Shown here one piece after another: positions 524 to 7,388 of a DNA stretch of 64,000 nucleotides. The stretch is taken from the NCBI GenBank assembly GCA_963753755.1, contig CAVWDM010000023.1:8190-72189 (forward strand), written 5' to 3'. Source of the DNA: an uncultured Gammaproteobacteria bacterium. GTDB taxonomy: Bacteria > Pseudomonadota > Gammaproteobacteria > UBA9214. Within the stretch, counting starts at the first letter, position 1. Each line of letters opens with the position of its first letter. The position numbers and the translations under genes were made by a program. The notes beneath the pieces are model-generated. The model was not told where the DNA came from. It made no database searches and saw only the letters and a list, made by a program, of their open reading frames with translations.

Positions 524-952
524 ATGGTTCGTCATTCAAGTAAAAGTGGTTTTAGACATTGCCTGACTGCTGCGGCAATGGCCGTTCAACTGGCCGGGTG
601 CGGTGGTGAGGACAACGGTTTTGATAGCTCAGCCTCTTCAACAGTGCCAGCTAACCGTGCCTATAGTTCAGCCTCTTCAGCGCCGACAACCGGCAGTGCT
701 ACCTTAAACTGGGTTGCTCCTGTTGCGAGAGCAGATGGGTCGCCCATCTCGCTGGCGGATATTGACGGTTACCGGGTCTACTATGGGGCGACCAAAGGTA
801 ACTATACAAATCGTACTGATGTCACTGATGGTACTGCCGAGGGGGCTGTCCTGAGAGGCCTTCCCCCAGGAACTATCTATATTGTTGTCACGACCTATGA
901 CACTGCTGGACGTGAGAGTGCTTACTCGGACGTGGTCATTAGAAAGATCTAG
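524..952 (+). CDS. Lipoprotein with fibronectin type III-like domain
   Basis: Lipobox LAGC, Ser/Thr-rich linker, then GSATLNWVAP...DGYRVYYG...YIVVTTYD..GRES (FN3-like). Confidence 0.75.
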   Translation: MVRHSSKSGFRHCLTAAAMAVQLAGCGGEDNGFDSSASSTVPANRAYSSASSAPTTGSATLNWVAPVARADGSPISLADIDGYRVYYGATKGNYTNRTDVTDGTAEGAVLRGLPPGTIYIVVTTYDTAGRESAYSDVVIRKI

Positions 953-1228
953 TCAGCTACCCGTATTCGGAGATTTAGCTTCATTCCCGGTATACCAATT
1001 CCAGCAGCGCAAAAAAGCCGGACTCCGATGCAGTCATCGGGTCACTATTATTGTGACTCCGTGGGTTTCGACTATGCCAGTAGCCCTCTGTGTCGGAATG
1101 CTTGCCTAATAGGATCACAGATGCACGGTTACTTTCTGTTTGCAGAAAGGACGGTTACCCCGCTAGCGGTCATTTACTAACAACATTGTTGAAATAATTC
1201 TGCCTGCACTGTTGGCAAAGTCTGACAG

Positions 1229-1621: not shown

Positions 1622-1716
1622 TGTACCTAAGGACAATATACAGCCTGGGGCTTTATGTCATATCTTTTTACTTAGTGGCGTAACGATAATAGTAATCCTC
1701 CAATCAACGTCACTAG
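1622..1716. repeat. Dispersed module Z, copy 1
   Basis: TGTACCTAAGGACAATA (1622-1638) followed by TTATG-C-TAT, GTGGCG and GTCAC blocks also seen at 4287 and 40855. Confidence 0.8.
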
Positions 1717-1757
1717 TATGAACTGCATCAGGGAAGTAGCAGGGCATCTATCTTACG

Positions 1758-1781
1758 GCCACCCCTCGGGGTGGCTTTTTT
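1758..1781 (+). terminator. Rho-independent terminator; group IIC intron target
   Basis: GCCACCCC-TC-GGGGTGGC hairpin plus TTTTTT; the intron 5' end GTGCG follows at 1784. Confidence 0.9.
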
Positions 1782-1783
1782 AT

Positions 1784-2415
1784 GTGCGCCCAGCATGGGC
1801 GCGATTCTGGAGGTGGAAGTCCTCCCGTGAGTTGACCACAGCGAACGAAGTGAAGCGCAACTGCATGAGGGTGACCGATTGTGGGGAGGAAGCGTGGAGC
1901 GAAGCCGTGAGCCGATGGACAAGAACCGGATACGAGGCGGTGCCGAGCAGGGTGAGCGGGCATGAAATCGCGAAGCTCTTGTGGTCAAGGCTCAGGCGGC
2001 GTAAATCCGGCGGTTGTGCGGTGAAGGATCGCGTTCTTACCTGGGGAGATCTCGCCTTGTGCCTGAAAGGGCGACGGTGATGAACCGGAGCGAGAAGTCA
2101 GCAGAGGTCATAGTAGCTGCCAGCATGGAGCGAAGGGCCGAAGGAATAGGAGAGGGAGTCCTCTGGTTCTCGGATTTGGAATGTCTCAGATGTTCGCAGA
2201 AGCGAAGCTCGTCGTTATGGCTTGTAAGGTGAAGCCCGATAAGCTACGGCAGCGAGAAACCGAATCGGGCGGATCAGAAACAAGCAACCTCAGGAGGTGT
2301 GCCGGGATTGACTCAAGTGCGCCGACCTCAACTATTCCAACCGCCCGGTGCGGACCCGCATGCCGGGTGGTGTGGGAGGGGCTCGGTCAGGTTTCCTGAC
2401 CGCCCCTATCCCGAT
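1784..2415 (+). mobile_element. ORF-less group IIC intron
   Basis: 5' GTGCGCCCAGCATGGG; DV AACCGCCCGGTGCGGACCCGCATGCCGGGTGGTG with CGC triad; DVI ending CCCCTATCCCGAT; DIV only about 200 nt with no RT ORF. Confidence 0.9.
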
Positions 2416-4250
2416 GTGCGCCCAGCATGGGCGCGATTCTGGAGGTGGAAGTCCTCCCGTGAGTTGACCACAGCGAACGAAGTGAAGCGCAACTGCATGA
2501 GGGTGACCGATTGTGGGGAGGAAGCGTGGAGCGAAGCCGTGAGCCGATGGACAAGAACCGGATACGAGGCGGTGCCGAGCAGGGTGAGCGGGCATGAAAT
2601 CGCGAAGCTCTTGTGGTCAAGGCTCAGGCGGCGTAAATCCGGCGGTTGTGCGGTGAAGGATCGCGTTCTTACCTGGGGAGATCTCGCCTTGTGCCTGAAA
2701 GGGCGACGGTGATGAACCGGAGCGAGAAGTCAGCAGAGGTCATAGTAGCCGCAAGGCGAAGGACCGAACGAGAAGGAGAGTCGACTGTCATGTCGCTTGG
2801 CACTGCAAGGCATCAGAAGCCCGGGCAACCGGGGCGAACTGCCGAGGGGGAAGGTGAAGCCCGACCCGAAGCATTTCGTGATGAAGCAGGGCTGGCGCGG
2901 CATGAATCGCAAGGCTCGGGGCGAGCTGACCTGCTTGGGCAGGTGCTCGCGAGAGGGAACCTGGTCGTGGCATGGAAACGTGTCAAGGCCAATCGCGGCA
3001 GTGCGGGGGTAGATGGACTGACGATCCAGGCCACGGCCGAGTACCTCAAGACCCACTGGTCCCAGATCAAGGAGGCGCTGCAAAATGGCAGCTACCGGCC
3101 TCAGCCGGTGCGCCGCGTGCAGATACCCAAGTCTGGGGGCGGTATGAGGGAGCTGGGGATACCGACCGTGACGGATCGATTGATTCAGCAAGCCCTACTG
3201 CAAGTCCTGCAGCCATTGATTGATCCGACGTTTTCCAACCATAGCTATGGCTTCCGACCGGGCCGACGGGCGCATGACGCTGTGCTGACTGCGCAGCATT
3301 ATGTTCAAGAAGGTTATCGGGTGGTGGTCGATGTGGATCTGGAGAAGTTCTTCGACCGGGTCAATCACGACGTGCTCATGGATCGGCTGGCGAGACGTAT
3401 CGACGATAAGGCCGTACTGCGGCTGATACGGCGATATCTCAACGCGGGTGTCATGGATAACGGTGTGGTCATGGAGCGGTACGAGGGTACGCCGCAAGGC
3501 GGGCCACTTTCGCCGCTACTGGCCAATGTGTTGCTGGACGAGGTGGATCAGGAACTGGAGCGACGGGGCCATCGGTTCGTGCGCTACGCCGATGACTGCA
3601 ATGTGTATGTGCGCAGTCAGAAGGCCGGCGAGCGAGTCCTCAATGGTTTGCGCAAGCTCTACAACCGGCTCCATCTGAAGGTAAACGAAGCTAAAAGCGC
3701 GGTGGCCAGCGCCTATGGCCGTGCCTTTCTCGGCTACGAGTTGTGGTGTTCGGGCGGGGACATGGTCAAGCGGGGTGTTGCGCATAAGGCAACGGTCGCC
3801 TTCAAACGGCGCATCCGGCAGATTACCCGCCGGACGTGCGGGCGTAACCTGAGCGAGGTAGCGGAGGAACTGCGGCGATATGTGCCGGGCTGGAATGGTT
3901 ATTTCAAGCTGGCACAGACACCAAAGGTCTTTCGCGAACTGGACGAATGGTTGCGACACCGTCTGCGTGCCTTGCAGCTCAAACACTGGCGCCGCGGAAC
4001 GACGGTTTATCGGGAGTTACGGGCCTTGGGTGCGAGTTCGGATCAAGCGGCACGAGTGGCGGGTAATGCCCGCCGCTGGTGGCGTACCAGCTGCTTGCTG
4101 CTGAACTGGCTCATGCCTATTGCCTACTTCGATCGTCTCGGTGTTCCCCGACTCTCATGACCTCAACTTCTCGAACCGCCCGGTGCGGACCCGCATGCCG
4201 GGTGGTGTGGGAGGGGCTCGGTCAGGTATCCTGACCGCCCCTATCCCGAT
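2416..4250 (+). mobile_element. Full-length group IIC intron encoding RT/maturase
   Basis: Starts GTGCG directly after copy 1, ends CCCCTATCCCGAT at 4250, and has the RT ORF in DIV. Confidence 0.95.
2790..4160 (+). CDS. ltrA: Group II intron reverse transcriptase/maturase (class C, no endonuclease domain)
   Basis: Motifs GSAGVDG, RELGIPTVTDR, SYGFRPGR, DLEKFFD, GTPQGGPLSPLL, RYADD and a thumb/X domain (GWNGYF). ATG 2790 follows AAGGAGAG; the ORF-track start 2646 lies inside the ribozyme. Confidence 0.95.
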   Translation: MSLGTARHQKPGQPGRTAEGEGEARPEAFRDEAGLARHESQGSGRADLLGQVLARGNLVVAWKRVKANRGSAGVDGLTIQATAEYLKTHWSQIKEALQNGSYRPQPVRRVQIPKSGGGMRELGIPTVTDRLIQQALLQVLQPLIDPTFSNHSYGFRPGRRAHDAVLTAQHYVQEGYRVVVDVDLEKFFDRVNHDVLMDRLARRIDDKAVLRLIRRYLNAGVMDNGVVMERYEGTPQGGPLSPLLANVLLDEVDQELERRGHRFVRYADDCNVYVRSQKAGERVLNGLRKLYNRLHLKVNEAKSAVASAYGRAFLGYELWCSGGDMVKRGVAHKATVAFKRRIRQITRRTCGRNLSEVAEELRRYVPGWNGYFKLAQTPKVFRELDEWLRHRLRALQLKHWRRGTTVYRELRALGASSDQAARVAGNARRWWRTSCLLLNWLMPIAYFDRLGVPRLS

Positions 4251-4286
4251 TTGAATCTCAGTAGCGGGCCGGCAACCATGTCCGGT

Positions 4287-4370
4287 TGTACCTAAGGACA
4301 ATAGTCAGACCTGGCGTTATGCCTTATCGTGTAAAACAGGTGGCGCTCCACTTCTTCTACTCGTCACTAA
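4287..4370. repeat. Dispersed module Z, copy 2
   Basis: TGTACCTAAGGACAATA at 4287-4303 plus TTATGCCTTAT, GTGGCG and GTCACTA. Confidence 0.8.
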
Positions 4371-4432
4371 CACGCCCTGTGATTCACTCCCACAGTGCGT
4401 GTTTCTATGTCTGCAGCCTTCATGGCGTGGCG

Positions 4433-4467
4433 ACAGTATAAAGACCACATGCAGAAGGTTGATACAA
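4433..4467. repeat. Dispersed module Y, copy 2
   Basis: acagtataaagaccacatgcagaaggttgatacaa, similar to 1508-1542. Confidence 0.55.
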
Positions 4468-4742
4468 CTAGCACAAGTCGAGAGCGGTCGCTGATGTGGC
4501 TGTCCTCATACTGGCGGTGTTCCATCATTGCAGAATACAGCTCTTCATAGGGTGTCGTTTATTGTTCAATGCAGACCTTGATTACAACGATGTTTACTTG
4601 TTTAGATCTCCAGTGACAAGTGCGGGCAGCAAACTTCTGCATGGCCAGCTTGTCGCAGCCAGACAATGGTCTGGCACGTAGTGGTTACCGTGTATTTTTT
4701 AGCGGGCATAATATTATCCATGGTACCTTCTAGTTGGTTTTC

Positions 4743-4768
4743 AGGCGGCCTCAGGGTCGCCTTTTTTT
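4743..4768 (+). terminator. Rho-independent terminator
   Basis: AGGCGGCC-TCAG-GGTCGCCT followed by a T run. Confidence 0.75.
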
Positions 4769-5662: not shown

Positions 5663-5748
5663 CATTCGCCTGTTCAGTAGGTTGTAATCTATTTGTAATT
5701 CCGCATTAGTTCCTGTTTTTCATTTCCTTAGGCTTGTACCGTTCTATA

Positions 5749-5763
5749 TGGCACGGCTATTGC
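5749..5763 (+). promoter_or_regulatory. Sigma-54 -24/-12 promoter
   Basis: TGGCACG-GCTA-TTGC matches TGGCACR-N4-TTGC. Confidence 0.8.
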
Positions 5764-5819
5764 CTGTGAACGTCGATACGCCCATTTCTAACGCCCAGCC
5801 CAGGAAGGAAACAGTTCCA

Positions 5820-7388
5820 ATGACAATCCATCAGTTTAATTCTACATCTCGATACTTGAAGTTCTTTATTTTATCTGTGTTTTTGTTTGCTGTGCACGGT
5901 GCGGCTGAGGCAAAAGATCTATGGGTGGATATCCTCTCACTGGGAGGTAGCTGTTCCGATGCGCGTAATCGAGACCAGGTTGGTCCTGCGACACCCTGGT
6001 GTAATCTGGGTCCGGCCGGTGAGCAGGCCCTTGCTGGCGATGTCGTCACGGTGAGAAGAGGTACCTACGCCAAACTTCACACCTGCCAAAAGTGTTACGA
6101 CACCTTTGTGTTTGAAGTCGTGAACAGTGGGACAAGTTCCGCCTGGATCAAATTTCGTTCATTACCTGGCGAGAAAGTGATCATATCGGGAAATGGCGGT
6201 GTTTCTCACGGCATTGGTGTCCTTCAAAACCGGAATTTTGGTGAGAAACCCCGATTTATCTCACTGCAAGGCTTCGAAGTACGTGACTTTGGACCCGAAG
6301 GCTTTTGTACCTGGGTGCGGTCCACCTCTGATGTTGTCCTGAAAGACCTCGACATCCATGGCTGCAGCCTGGGAGCGGTTGAGCTTCACGATACCGCGCG
6401 CGTTACCGTCGAAGATAGCCGTATACATGACAATCCAATGAGCGGATGGACCAGCGCAGTAGACCTCTACCGTTGCAGAGAAGGCCACATCATTCGACGA
6501 AACCTCATCTGGAACAATACGGATACTGATCCCGCCGAGAGCGAGGGCCATGGAATAATCATGGACGTATGTAAAGACTATGGTGGAAGTGCTGTCATAG
6601 AAAGCAACGTGATATGGGAGAATGAAGGGTGGTGCATAGTCGCAAACTGGGCAGACAACAGCATTGTGCGTAACAACACCTGCTGGATGAATGGCAACGG
6701 CCGCGCAGAGACGGGTGAAATTATCGTCGGCGACAACAATCATAGTATTCACAACAATATCACTGTACCCCGGTCAGGCCGACTCGGGCTTGCCATGAAG
6801 TACGGTGAAGGTAATACGTTTGAATACAATCTGGTACATGGAGGAAACTGGCTTTTGACATGGCCTGAGAACCTGTACCTGATGAACGAAGATCCAATGT
6901 TCGTCAATCCTGGTGCCGGGGACTTCCGCCTTAGGGCAGGCTCACCGGCTATTGATTCCGGTGACAACGCCAACGCGGCTTCCAGTGACGCTGACGGCAA
7001 TGCACGCCCACAGGATGGAAGTAACCTTGGCTACTCTATGGTAGATCTTGGTGCGTATGAATATACCCAGAGCGACTCCGGTAACGGTAATCCCGCATTG
7101 GACAGTGACAATGACGGTATTGCCGATAACCAGGACAATTGCACGCTGGTACCCAATAGTAGCCAGCTGGATACCAATGGGGATGGTTTCGGCAACAGCT
7201 GCGATCCGGACTTTAACCAGAACCTGGTTGTTGATCCGAATGATCATTCAGCCCTCAAGGCCGTCCTGGGGCAGTCCGGGCATCCAGACGAGGATATGAA
7301 TGGCAACGGTATCGTGGATCCGGAAGACTTCTCGATTCTCAAGTCCTTTCTGGGCCAGCCACCGGGGCCATCCTGCTGTGCACTATAG
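5820..7388 (+). CDS. Secreted parallel beta-helix protein with choice-of-anchor-Q-like region, thrombospondin type-3 repeats and dockerin-like tail
   Basis: Signal peptide (...VHGAAEA), beta-helix repeats, DPMFV..DFRL..SPAIDSG..DLGAYE, DSDNDGIADNQDNC...DGFGNSCD, DMNGNGIVD, and a QPPGPSCCAL end. Start moved to ATG 5820 (RBS AGGAAGG) because 5748 overlaps the promoter. Confidence 0.85.
   Translation: MTIHQFNSTSRYLKFFILSVFLFAVHGAAEAKDLWVDILSLGGSCSDARNRDQVGPATPWCNLGPAGEQALAGDVVTVRRGTYAKLHTCQKCYDTFVFEVVNSGTSSAWIKFRSLPGEKVIISGNGGVSHGIGVLQNRNFGEKPRFISLQGFEVRDFGPEGFCTWVRSTSDVVLKDLDIHGCSLGAVELHDTARVTVEDSRIHDNPMSGWTSAVDLYRCREGHIIRRNLIWNNTDTDPAESEGHGIIMDVCKDYGGSAVIESNVIWENEGWCIVANWADNSIVRNNTCWMNGNGRAETGEIIVGDNNHSIHNNITVPRSGRLGLAMKYGEGNTFEYNLVHGGNWLLTWPENLYLMNEDPMFVNPGAGDFRLRAGSPAIDSGDNANAASSDADGNARPQDGSNLGYSMVDLGAYEYTQSDSGNGNPALDSDNDGIADNQDNCTLVPNSSQLDTNGDGFGNSCDPDFNQNLVVDPNDHSALKAVLGQSGHPDEDMNGNGIVDPEDFSILKSFLGQPPGPSCCAL

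Follow-up and report, generated by a model that had tools for sequence, protein, structure and literature searches.

A seamless tandem of an ORF-less and a reverse transcriptase-encoding group IIC intron behind one terminator of an uncultured gammaproteobacterium

Characterized members of group IIC, among them GsI-IIC of Geobacillus stearothermophilus and Ta.it.I1, integrate right behind the hairpins of intrinsic terminators, use a short pairing between exon-binding site 1 (EBS1) and intron-binding site 1 (IBS1), and encode a reverse transcriptase (RT)/maturase without an endonuclease domain. A substrate made up of a hairpin and IBS1 has been described for a IIC intron (PMC7161350). Here, we analyze two introns, A and B, in a 64,000-nucleotide (nt) stretch of DNA from an uncultured gammaproteobacterium (GTDB lineage UBA9214; assembly GCA_963753755.1, contig CAVWDM010000023.1, positions 8,190 to 72,189), hereafter referred to as the window. 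Both introns resemble GsI-IIC and Ta.it.I1 in their location just after a terminator hairpin and in their short EBS1-IBS1 pairing, and B also does so in its RT/maturase. Unlike in these known cases, one terminator serves two distinct, seamlessly joined units, of which A has no open reading frame (ORF) for an RT. We propose, as a probable though by no means certain explanation, that A and B form a real head-to-tail IIC pair that arose by two separate retrohoming events at one terminator, with B arriving first and with A being a recombinant intron that was mobilized in trans.

Tandem integration of a group II intron was reported in only one of the texts in the literature that we searched, a 2025 study of the IIB1 intron EcKTE56.groEL (PMC12584367). 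There, a further copy integrates at the occupied homing site, on the upstream side of the resident intron, the first G of which serves as IBS3, and this re-insertion into a long, sequence-specific site is permitted by an EBS3(U)-IBS3(G) wobble. These tandems were observed in an over-expression assay, in which a delta-ORF form integrated in tandem at 22.4% and the full-length intron at 4.2%, and in about 3% of the intron-containing reads of one data set. The seamless junction of an intron 3' end with GTGCG is common to EcKTE56.groEL and to our pair, whereas the arrays described here are natural, fixed in genomes and composed of two different introns. Mobilization of ORF-less introns has its best counterpart in the TeI3 introns of Thermosynechococcus elongatus, which derive from ORF deletion, keep remnants of domain IV (DIV), spread to sites with good EBS/IBS pairing, and were experimentally shown to be moved in trans by the 'driver' intron-encoded proteins (IEPs) of related introns (PMC2882425). 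TeI3 introns are ORF-less like A; unlike A and B, they do not belong to group IIC and occur as nested twintrons and not in head-to-tail arrays at terminators. In addition, the ORF-less lineage studied here differs from TeI3 in that it spans distant hosts and has exchanged the 5' part of its ribozyme with a local helper. In intergenic DNA of Methanosarcina acetivorans, related introns have repeatedly been the site of further intron insertion, within them or at their side (PMC4424553), yet those introns are nested, while A and B stand side by side without overlap or interruption. In the circularly permuted group II ribozyme, domains D5-D6 precede D1-D4 within a single unit (PMC8637638). The domain order is standard in both A and B, and only the stretch across their junction, with DV-DVI of A followed by DI-DIV of B, resembles the permuted order. 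Natural IIC tandems or ORF-less IIC introns were not described in the searched literature, including the available parts of PMC7306698 and PMC8919778; an earlier account in the primary IIC papers is possible. The pair combines known kinds of system, and a IIC tandem with an ORF-less unit is a variant of them.

The tandem and the features that define it lie on the forward strand. An intrinsic terminator hairpin of 8 bp with a 4-nt loop at 1757-1776, detected with its T-run by a terminator scan and by folding (-17.3 kcal/mol, z -4.2), leads into the tail TTTTTAT, the last six nt of which (TTTTAT, 1778-1783) represent IBS1. Intron A follows at 1784-2415 (632 nt, without RT) and abuts intron B (2416-4250, 1835 nt, with RT) exactly at 2415/2416, where CCCGAT is joined to GTGCG. 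Behind B the sequence continues with TTGAAT, so that the first nucleotide of the 3' exon, i.e., the IBS3 position, is the T at 4251. The initial annotation, made from the sequence alone, had already given the terminator, both units and the flank, with coordinates that proved exact, and the junction that it had read is present exactly as stated. Both units are delimited by their borders, by Rfam matches, by comparison with each other and by their further copies in the genome. Each of the two introns is matched once by the Rfam model RF02001 (110 bits) and once by RF01998 (46-47 bits). Between them, no difference occurs in the first 334 nt, 88 of the final 92 nt are shared, and the sequence in the middle differs. 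With the end of A at 2415 and the start of B at 2416, the two units are not nested in one another, and the pair is not a twintron. The GC content of the introns is 0.60-0.61, that of the window 0.54, and that of the genome 0.55.

A counterpart of this site without introns exists in nature. A contig of 1438 nt from a marine-sediment run (X3) matches 1500-1781 and then directly 4249-4496, with 2 and 3 mismatches, respectively; the join has a 2-nt ambiguity, as AT is repeated at both borders. This contig is a natural intron-free (empty) allele of the terminator site, and because it joins 1781 to 4249, the whole 2467 nt are an insertion relative to the empty allele.

The ORF of B (2790-4160) encodes 456 aa plus a stop codon. 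The protein contains the Pfam domains RVT_1 and GIIM only, reaches 423.7 bits on TIGR04416, and matched no endonuclease domain family. Its nearest solved relatives are all IIC RTs, namely the GsI-IIC RT 6ar1 (E 1e-134) followed by 7uim and 5hhj, with the IIB and IIA proteins 6me0 and 5g2x far behind. By sequence similarity, it is a class-C RT/maturase. Three copies of B are present in the genome, the one in the tandem and two solo copies at C5 and C2. The solo copies differ from the tandem copy at the same two third-codon positions, and the RT protein is identical in all three; the remaining RT-like genes of the genome are 35-42% identical to the RT of B.

A likewise has three copies, one in the tandem, one solo at C7 without any difference and one solo at C13 with one single-base deletion. 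C3 holds A', a diverged relative of 651 nt (83% identical) that is likewise ORF-less, and C16:75490-75552 a solitary 3' intron fragment of 63 nt without 5' part (97-98% identical). All six occupied genome sites are located after a GC-rich hairpin, different in each case, and a T-run, and all have T at position +1 of the 3' exon. The reservation of the initial annotation that A might occur nowhere else no longer holds, given the solo copies at two other terminators, the relative A' and an ORF-less copy in a sister species. On the basis of insertion site, ribozyme and EBS1, and for B also of the IEP, we classify A and B as group IIC (bacterial class C) introns.

The near-identical copies at three terminators, despite the lack of an RT of its own, suggest that A is a multi-copy and recently mobile element. 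ORF-less trans-mobilized introns are rare in bacteria and nearly always have a related IEP-encoding intron nearby (PMC4424553). The genome of A does contain a closely related IEP-encoding intron, as three copies of B with identical RTs are present. We infer from this distribution of copies that A was mobilized in trans by a B-type RT, in keeping with the dependence on the RT of B that the initial annotation had proposed.

Intron A has no IEP ORF, and the ORFs tested inside it (120 aa and 72 aa) matched no Pfam family. Its ribozyme is complete, with DI-DIII as in B (first 334 nt) and with DV and DVI that depart from those of B in the DVI loop alone. In both introns, the final 82 nt form a compact DV and a DVI with an adenosine that bulges out 8 nt before the end of the intron, which places the candidate branch point of A at 2408. 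In A, DV covers 2340-2371 and DVI 2373-2413, with a folding energy of -51.1 kcal/mol (z -5.1). At its threshold, the Rfam DV/DVI model RF00029 did not match anywhere in the genome, which we take as a limitation of this model for the compact IIC DV and not as absence of the domain.

Comparison by segment reveals that A does not have the same affinities along its whole length. Relative to B, the 5' part is identical at 334/334 positions, the tip of DIII together with DIV (2118-2323) is only 59% identical, and the last 92 nt agree at 88/92. Relative to the ORF-less intron of the sister species (genome G004), the corresponding values are 88%, 86%, and 91/92. Differences from B number 0/340 versus 4/92 (Fisher's test, p = 0.002). 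Judged by these identities, A is a mosaic, in which the 5' 334 nt are derived from B or common to both introns, and the DIII tip, DIV and the 3' end go back to an older ORF-less lineage. We base the mosaic on segment identities because the ribozyme-core tree is nearly a star (2/20 branches starred), and because the approximately unbiased (AU) test, which rejected a single clade for the units with A-type DIV (p = 0.0285), was applied to a group chosen after the first tree had been seen.

A', two ORF-less units of a Zoogloea genome (L037) and three metagenome contigs share the DIV type of A. Of the 66 pairs in the predicted fold of this DIV, 25 show changes on both sides, a value reached by 0/500 shuffles and set against 4-10 in slid controls; the fold was predicted on the same alignment that was used for the covariation count, which favours the fold. 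The DIV of A aligns with the 5' part of the DIV of B. A class-wide DNA search for the DIV of A gave matches in 0/399 other genomes, a result that is uninformative, as only two candidates per genome were scored and 2/4 of the genome's own copies were recovered. The covariation-supported fold and its presence in several hosts suggest that the ORF-less lineage is old and under structural constraint. The 5' part of its ribozyme, in turn, was recently exchanged with B, as judged from the sequence identities. This exchange could have arisen if, during complementary DNA (cDNA) synthesis, the RT had switched templates within DIII, leaving A RNA for B RNA. Because cDNA synthesis runs along the intron from 3' to 5', such a switch would give exactly the mosaic of A.

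A 20-nt word covering the end-to-start junction was found in 43 other public contigs, comprising 13 genome-collection loci and 30 metagenome contigs, among which the same contig appears twice in two cases (L040/L062 and L047/L068). One of the matches of the junction word, at L041, has no intron similarity on either side and is probably due to chance; by our own estimate about one chance match is expected per 20-mer in 596 Gb on both strands. The contigs are recorded as Roseateles, Zoogloea, Rhodocyclaceae, other Betaproteobacteria, Acidobacteriota, Polyangiaceae, Chromatiales, and Sabulibacter. Given the presence of the junction in 43 other contigs, the formation of tandem arrays is a trait of the lineage to which these introns belong. 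The copy mapping recommended in the initial annotation yielded solo copies of both introns in the genome, and the arrangement is less singular than this annotation had assumed.

Among the loci typed on both sides of the junction, 11 join two ORF-containing units; in five of these (L044, L045, L046, L061, and L066), the contig does not exceed about one unit in length, and maybe a single unit is read there around a cycle. One locus, L037, joins two ORF-less units. An ORF-less unit is followed by an ORF-containing unit at L070, in the present window, and at the second junction of L037 (with a TG spacer), and the opposite order, an ORF-containing unit followed by an ORF-less unit, was not present among the typed loci. 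The L037 array (L037:2553-5701, in a 638-kb Zoogloea contig) consists of two identical, abutting ORF-less units of 653 nt, the dinucleotide TG and an RT-encoding unit of 1841 nt, all at one terminator. The junction of L042 lies within a 67-kb contig. Nine arrays elsewhere have a visible start, and all of them begin after a hairpin and a T-run or T-rich tail.

Several further forms of these introns were seen in the public contigs. Very short 5' remnants of a second unit (8-81 nt) follow full introns at L036, L039, L047, L058, and L074. A mini-element of about 46 nt at L036:1718-1763 consists of the intron 5' hairpin fused to a DVI-like 3' end. In the metagenome contig L057 (native coordinates 810-1193, minus strand), the array is situated right after the terminator of a bacterial RNase P RNA gene (RF00010, 308 bits).

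The end-to-start junction could in principle also be the product of a single event, i.e., an end-to-end template switch of the RT from B RNA to another intron RNA while cDNA is made, homologous integration of circular intron DNA into a copy already present, or retrohoming of a composite A+B RNA released by the 5' splice site of A and the 3' splice site of B, as a circle or a concatemeric cDNA has the same kind of junction. In line with this, 17 of the 43 junction loci are contigs of about one unit (1.85-2.2 kb), which attest to reads across the junction, though not to the number of copies, and three of the 17 have terminal overlaps of 122-127 nt that indicate a cycle in the assembly graph. A contig from the RNA library X15 over 2339-2433 runs from the end of a related intron into the start of a related intron with one base missing; it may stem from a transcribed tandem, from a circular intron or from DNA carry-over. 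The mosaic structure of A, moreover, attests to past recombination between A and B. However, the outer junctions of the tandem are exactly those of ordinary IIC insertions, and the A-B pair is present at one genome site only, while A and B each occur solo elsewhere. The 5' identity of A and B extends to all solo copies and is therefore not a by-product of the formation of this tandem, and the 2-nt genomic spacer in the L037 array fits separate insertions in slightly shifted registers. To our knowledge, DNA circles of group II introns have not been reported. Taken together, we consider a single event to be quite improbable. Two origins had been offered in the initial annotation, repeated insertion at the same site and recombination of a circular intron cDNA; the former is favoured by the EBS1-IBS1 pairing described below and by the IIB1 precedent, whereas nothing calls for the latter.

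Target recognition argues for two separate insertions. EBS1 has the sequence ATGAAA in both A (1962-1967) and B (2594-2599), where it follows GGGC in DI, and it forms 6/6 pairs with the terminator tail TTTTAT and 2/6 with the intron end CCCGAT. In the arrays with a visible start that could be used for this test, EBS1 of the first unit pairs with its own terminator tail in 7/7 cases, over 6/6 positions in six arrays and over three contiguous ones in the seventh. Covariation of loop and terminator tail lends support to this EBS1 assignment, as ATGAAA is combined with TTTTAT or TTTCAT, ACGAAA with TTTCGT, AAGTGA with TCGTTT, CATGAA with TTCATG, and CAAAGA with TTTTTG. The spacing between hairpin and insertion site, counted by eye, is 7-10 nt at the six terminator sites of the genome. 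At the A-B junction, the DVI stem of the upstream intron ends 3 nt and its inner hairpin 14 nt (by eye) before the join. By pairing and hairpin spacing, each unit looks targeted to the terminator and not to another intron. Since EBS1 fits the terminator tail and not the intron end, two separate insertions, with A as the later one, are the likeliest origin of the pair.

On insertion upstream of B, A would have met a G at the +1 position. Of 17 related units, 12 have T at this position, 3 have C and 2 have A, and identical coordination loops are combined with differing +1 nucleotides. Covariation with the +1 nucleotide identified no EBS3 over these 17 units, and no EBS3 pairing with G was found. 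This variability without covariation makes entry upstream of a G plausible, as does the experimental precedent of EcKTE56.groEL. The pair could hence have formed as follows. B, the autonomous element, would have arrived first at the site after the terminator (1757-1783). A, with its complete ribozyme and structured DIV but no ORF, would then have been mobilized in trans by a B-type RT and would have entered second, between the still intact terminator and B, with the first G of B replacing the usual T at +1 (IBS3).

A number of observations weigh against this sequence of events. At C2, B resides behind a tail that ends in GAT like the intron's own end and offers only 2 contiguous bp, and its presence there indicates that weak IBS1 pairing does not forbid insertion. 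Four related units (L043u2 at L043:1007-2888, L060u2, L064u2, and L067u2), out of 26 alignable downstream units, carry an EBS1 of the type ATCG(AA/AT), which forms 4 bp with the lineage tail CGAT and, at L060, where this was testable, 0 bp with the terminator tail. This complementarity argues that insertion after a resident intron does occur in the lineage, and the ATCG-type units may be a sub-lineage that homes onto the ends of resident introns; in the L043 genome, one copy of this type is present, and its other relatives there are terminator-type. No allele of the terminator with only B or only A was found, which leaves pairing and hairpin geometry as the basis for ordering the two arrivals. 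In the sister genome G004 (92% complete, 290 contigs), which has the A-like intron, no RT was found by the query used. Finally, position 2415/2416 is spanned by no Logan contig of runs X1, X2, X3, and X15, where contigs are short and uncovered parts are uninformative.

Some of these points are shared by the reverse order of events, in which A was resident and B inserted right after the 3' end of A, with the DVI hairpin and GAT serving as 5' exon and T as IBS3. This order would leave IBS3 as the usual T, and it is compatible with the tolerance of B for a GAT-ending tail at C2 and with the four units whose EBS1 pairs with CGAT. B itself does not have an ATCG-type EBS1, however, and its EBS1 pairs at 2/6 positions with CCCGAT versus 6/6 with the terminator tail. 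Likewise, distances of 3 nt for the DVI stem and 14 nt for the inner hairpin compare poorly with the 7-10 nt at terminator sites. We therefore regard insertion of B behind a resident A as unlikely, albeit less so than a single event.

Artificial joining of the two introns during assembly, e.g., of two alternative alleles of one site placed in series, is very improbable. Such an error could be suspected from an assembly of 24 contigs with an estimated contamination of 3.7%, from the existence of the empty allele in nature and from the lack of a spanning Logan contig. Yet stacking of alleles would not be expected to give the seamless join of CCCGAT to GTGCG without a duplicated flank. Exact repeats of at least 1 kb, and up to 2.6 kb, are resolved inside contigs of this assembly, and its contig ends overlap as in long-read assemblies, which makes a false seamless join unlikely. 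Furthermore, the junction is found independently in the 43 public contigs, including those of 638 kb and 67 kb. Two separate insertions, B before A, thus remain our preferred explanation.

The terminator used by the pair belongs to a small conserved element at 1622-1783, and the next copy of this element begins 36 nt after the array (4287 to ~4440, end approximate, as delimited by alignment); both are on the forward strand. A search with a 15-nt word common to seven genome copies identified at least seven copies of the element (window 1622-1783, 4287-~4440, and ~40855; C1:247204, C2:100256, C6:192861, and C16:285099 on the minus strand), at least 4/7 of which end in a hairpin and T-run. The elements are about 110-190 nt long, have a conserved start GTACCTAAGGACAAT... 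and a GTCACTAAC box, and look like small RNA genes or leaders; no Rfam family was matched at gathering score. An unoccupied terminator hairpin at 4743-4762 (forward strand) has the tail TTTTTTAC, the final C of which would mismatch the first base of EBS1 (by eye). Further downstream, a gene at 5748-7388 encodes a 546-aa protein of beta-helix/thrombospondin-type-3/dockerin-like make-up, and most of this gene (window 5737-7063) is duplicated at C16:285506-286832 with 99.85% identity. The minus strand at 9339-9714 matches the cspA thermoregulator (RF01766, 95 bits versus a gathering score of 78).

It is tempting to view these introns as a two-tier parasite system that operates in distant bacteria, in which an old ORF-less lineage with a conserved, structured DIV of its own repeatedly swaps its ribozyme core for that of a resident RT-encoding relative, the arrays at re-usable terminators are the meeting place of both, and a sub-lineage has retargeted its EBS1 to intron tails. 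We consider this broader view possible but rather doubtful at present. If true, the arrays, with DV-DVI followed by DI-DIV, would be ready precursors of circularly permuted group II ribozymes. The window and the 43 contigs indicate that IIC introns in nature insert again at terminators already occupied and so form arrays, and that a non-autonomous lineage of IIC introns is maintained in different hosts and undergoes recombination with its helper. They provide a natural system for asking how strict recognition of the 3' exon (IBS3) is in IIC introns, how a helper RT is shared between introns, and how parasite and helper introns co-evolve, as a bacterial counterpart of the pairs of long and short interspersed nuclear elements (LINE/SINE).

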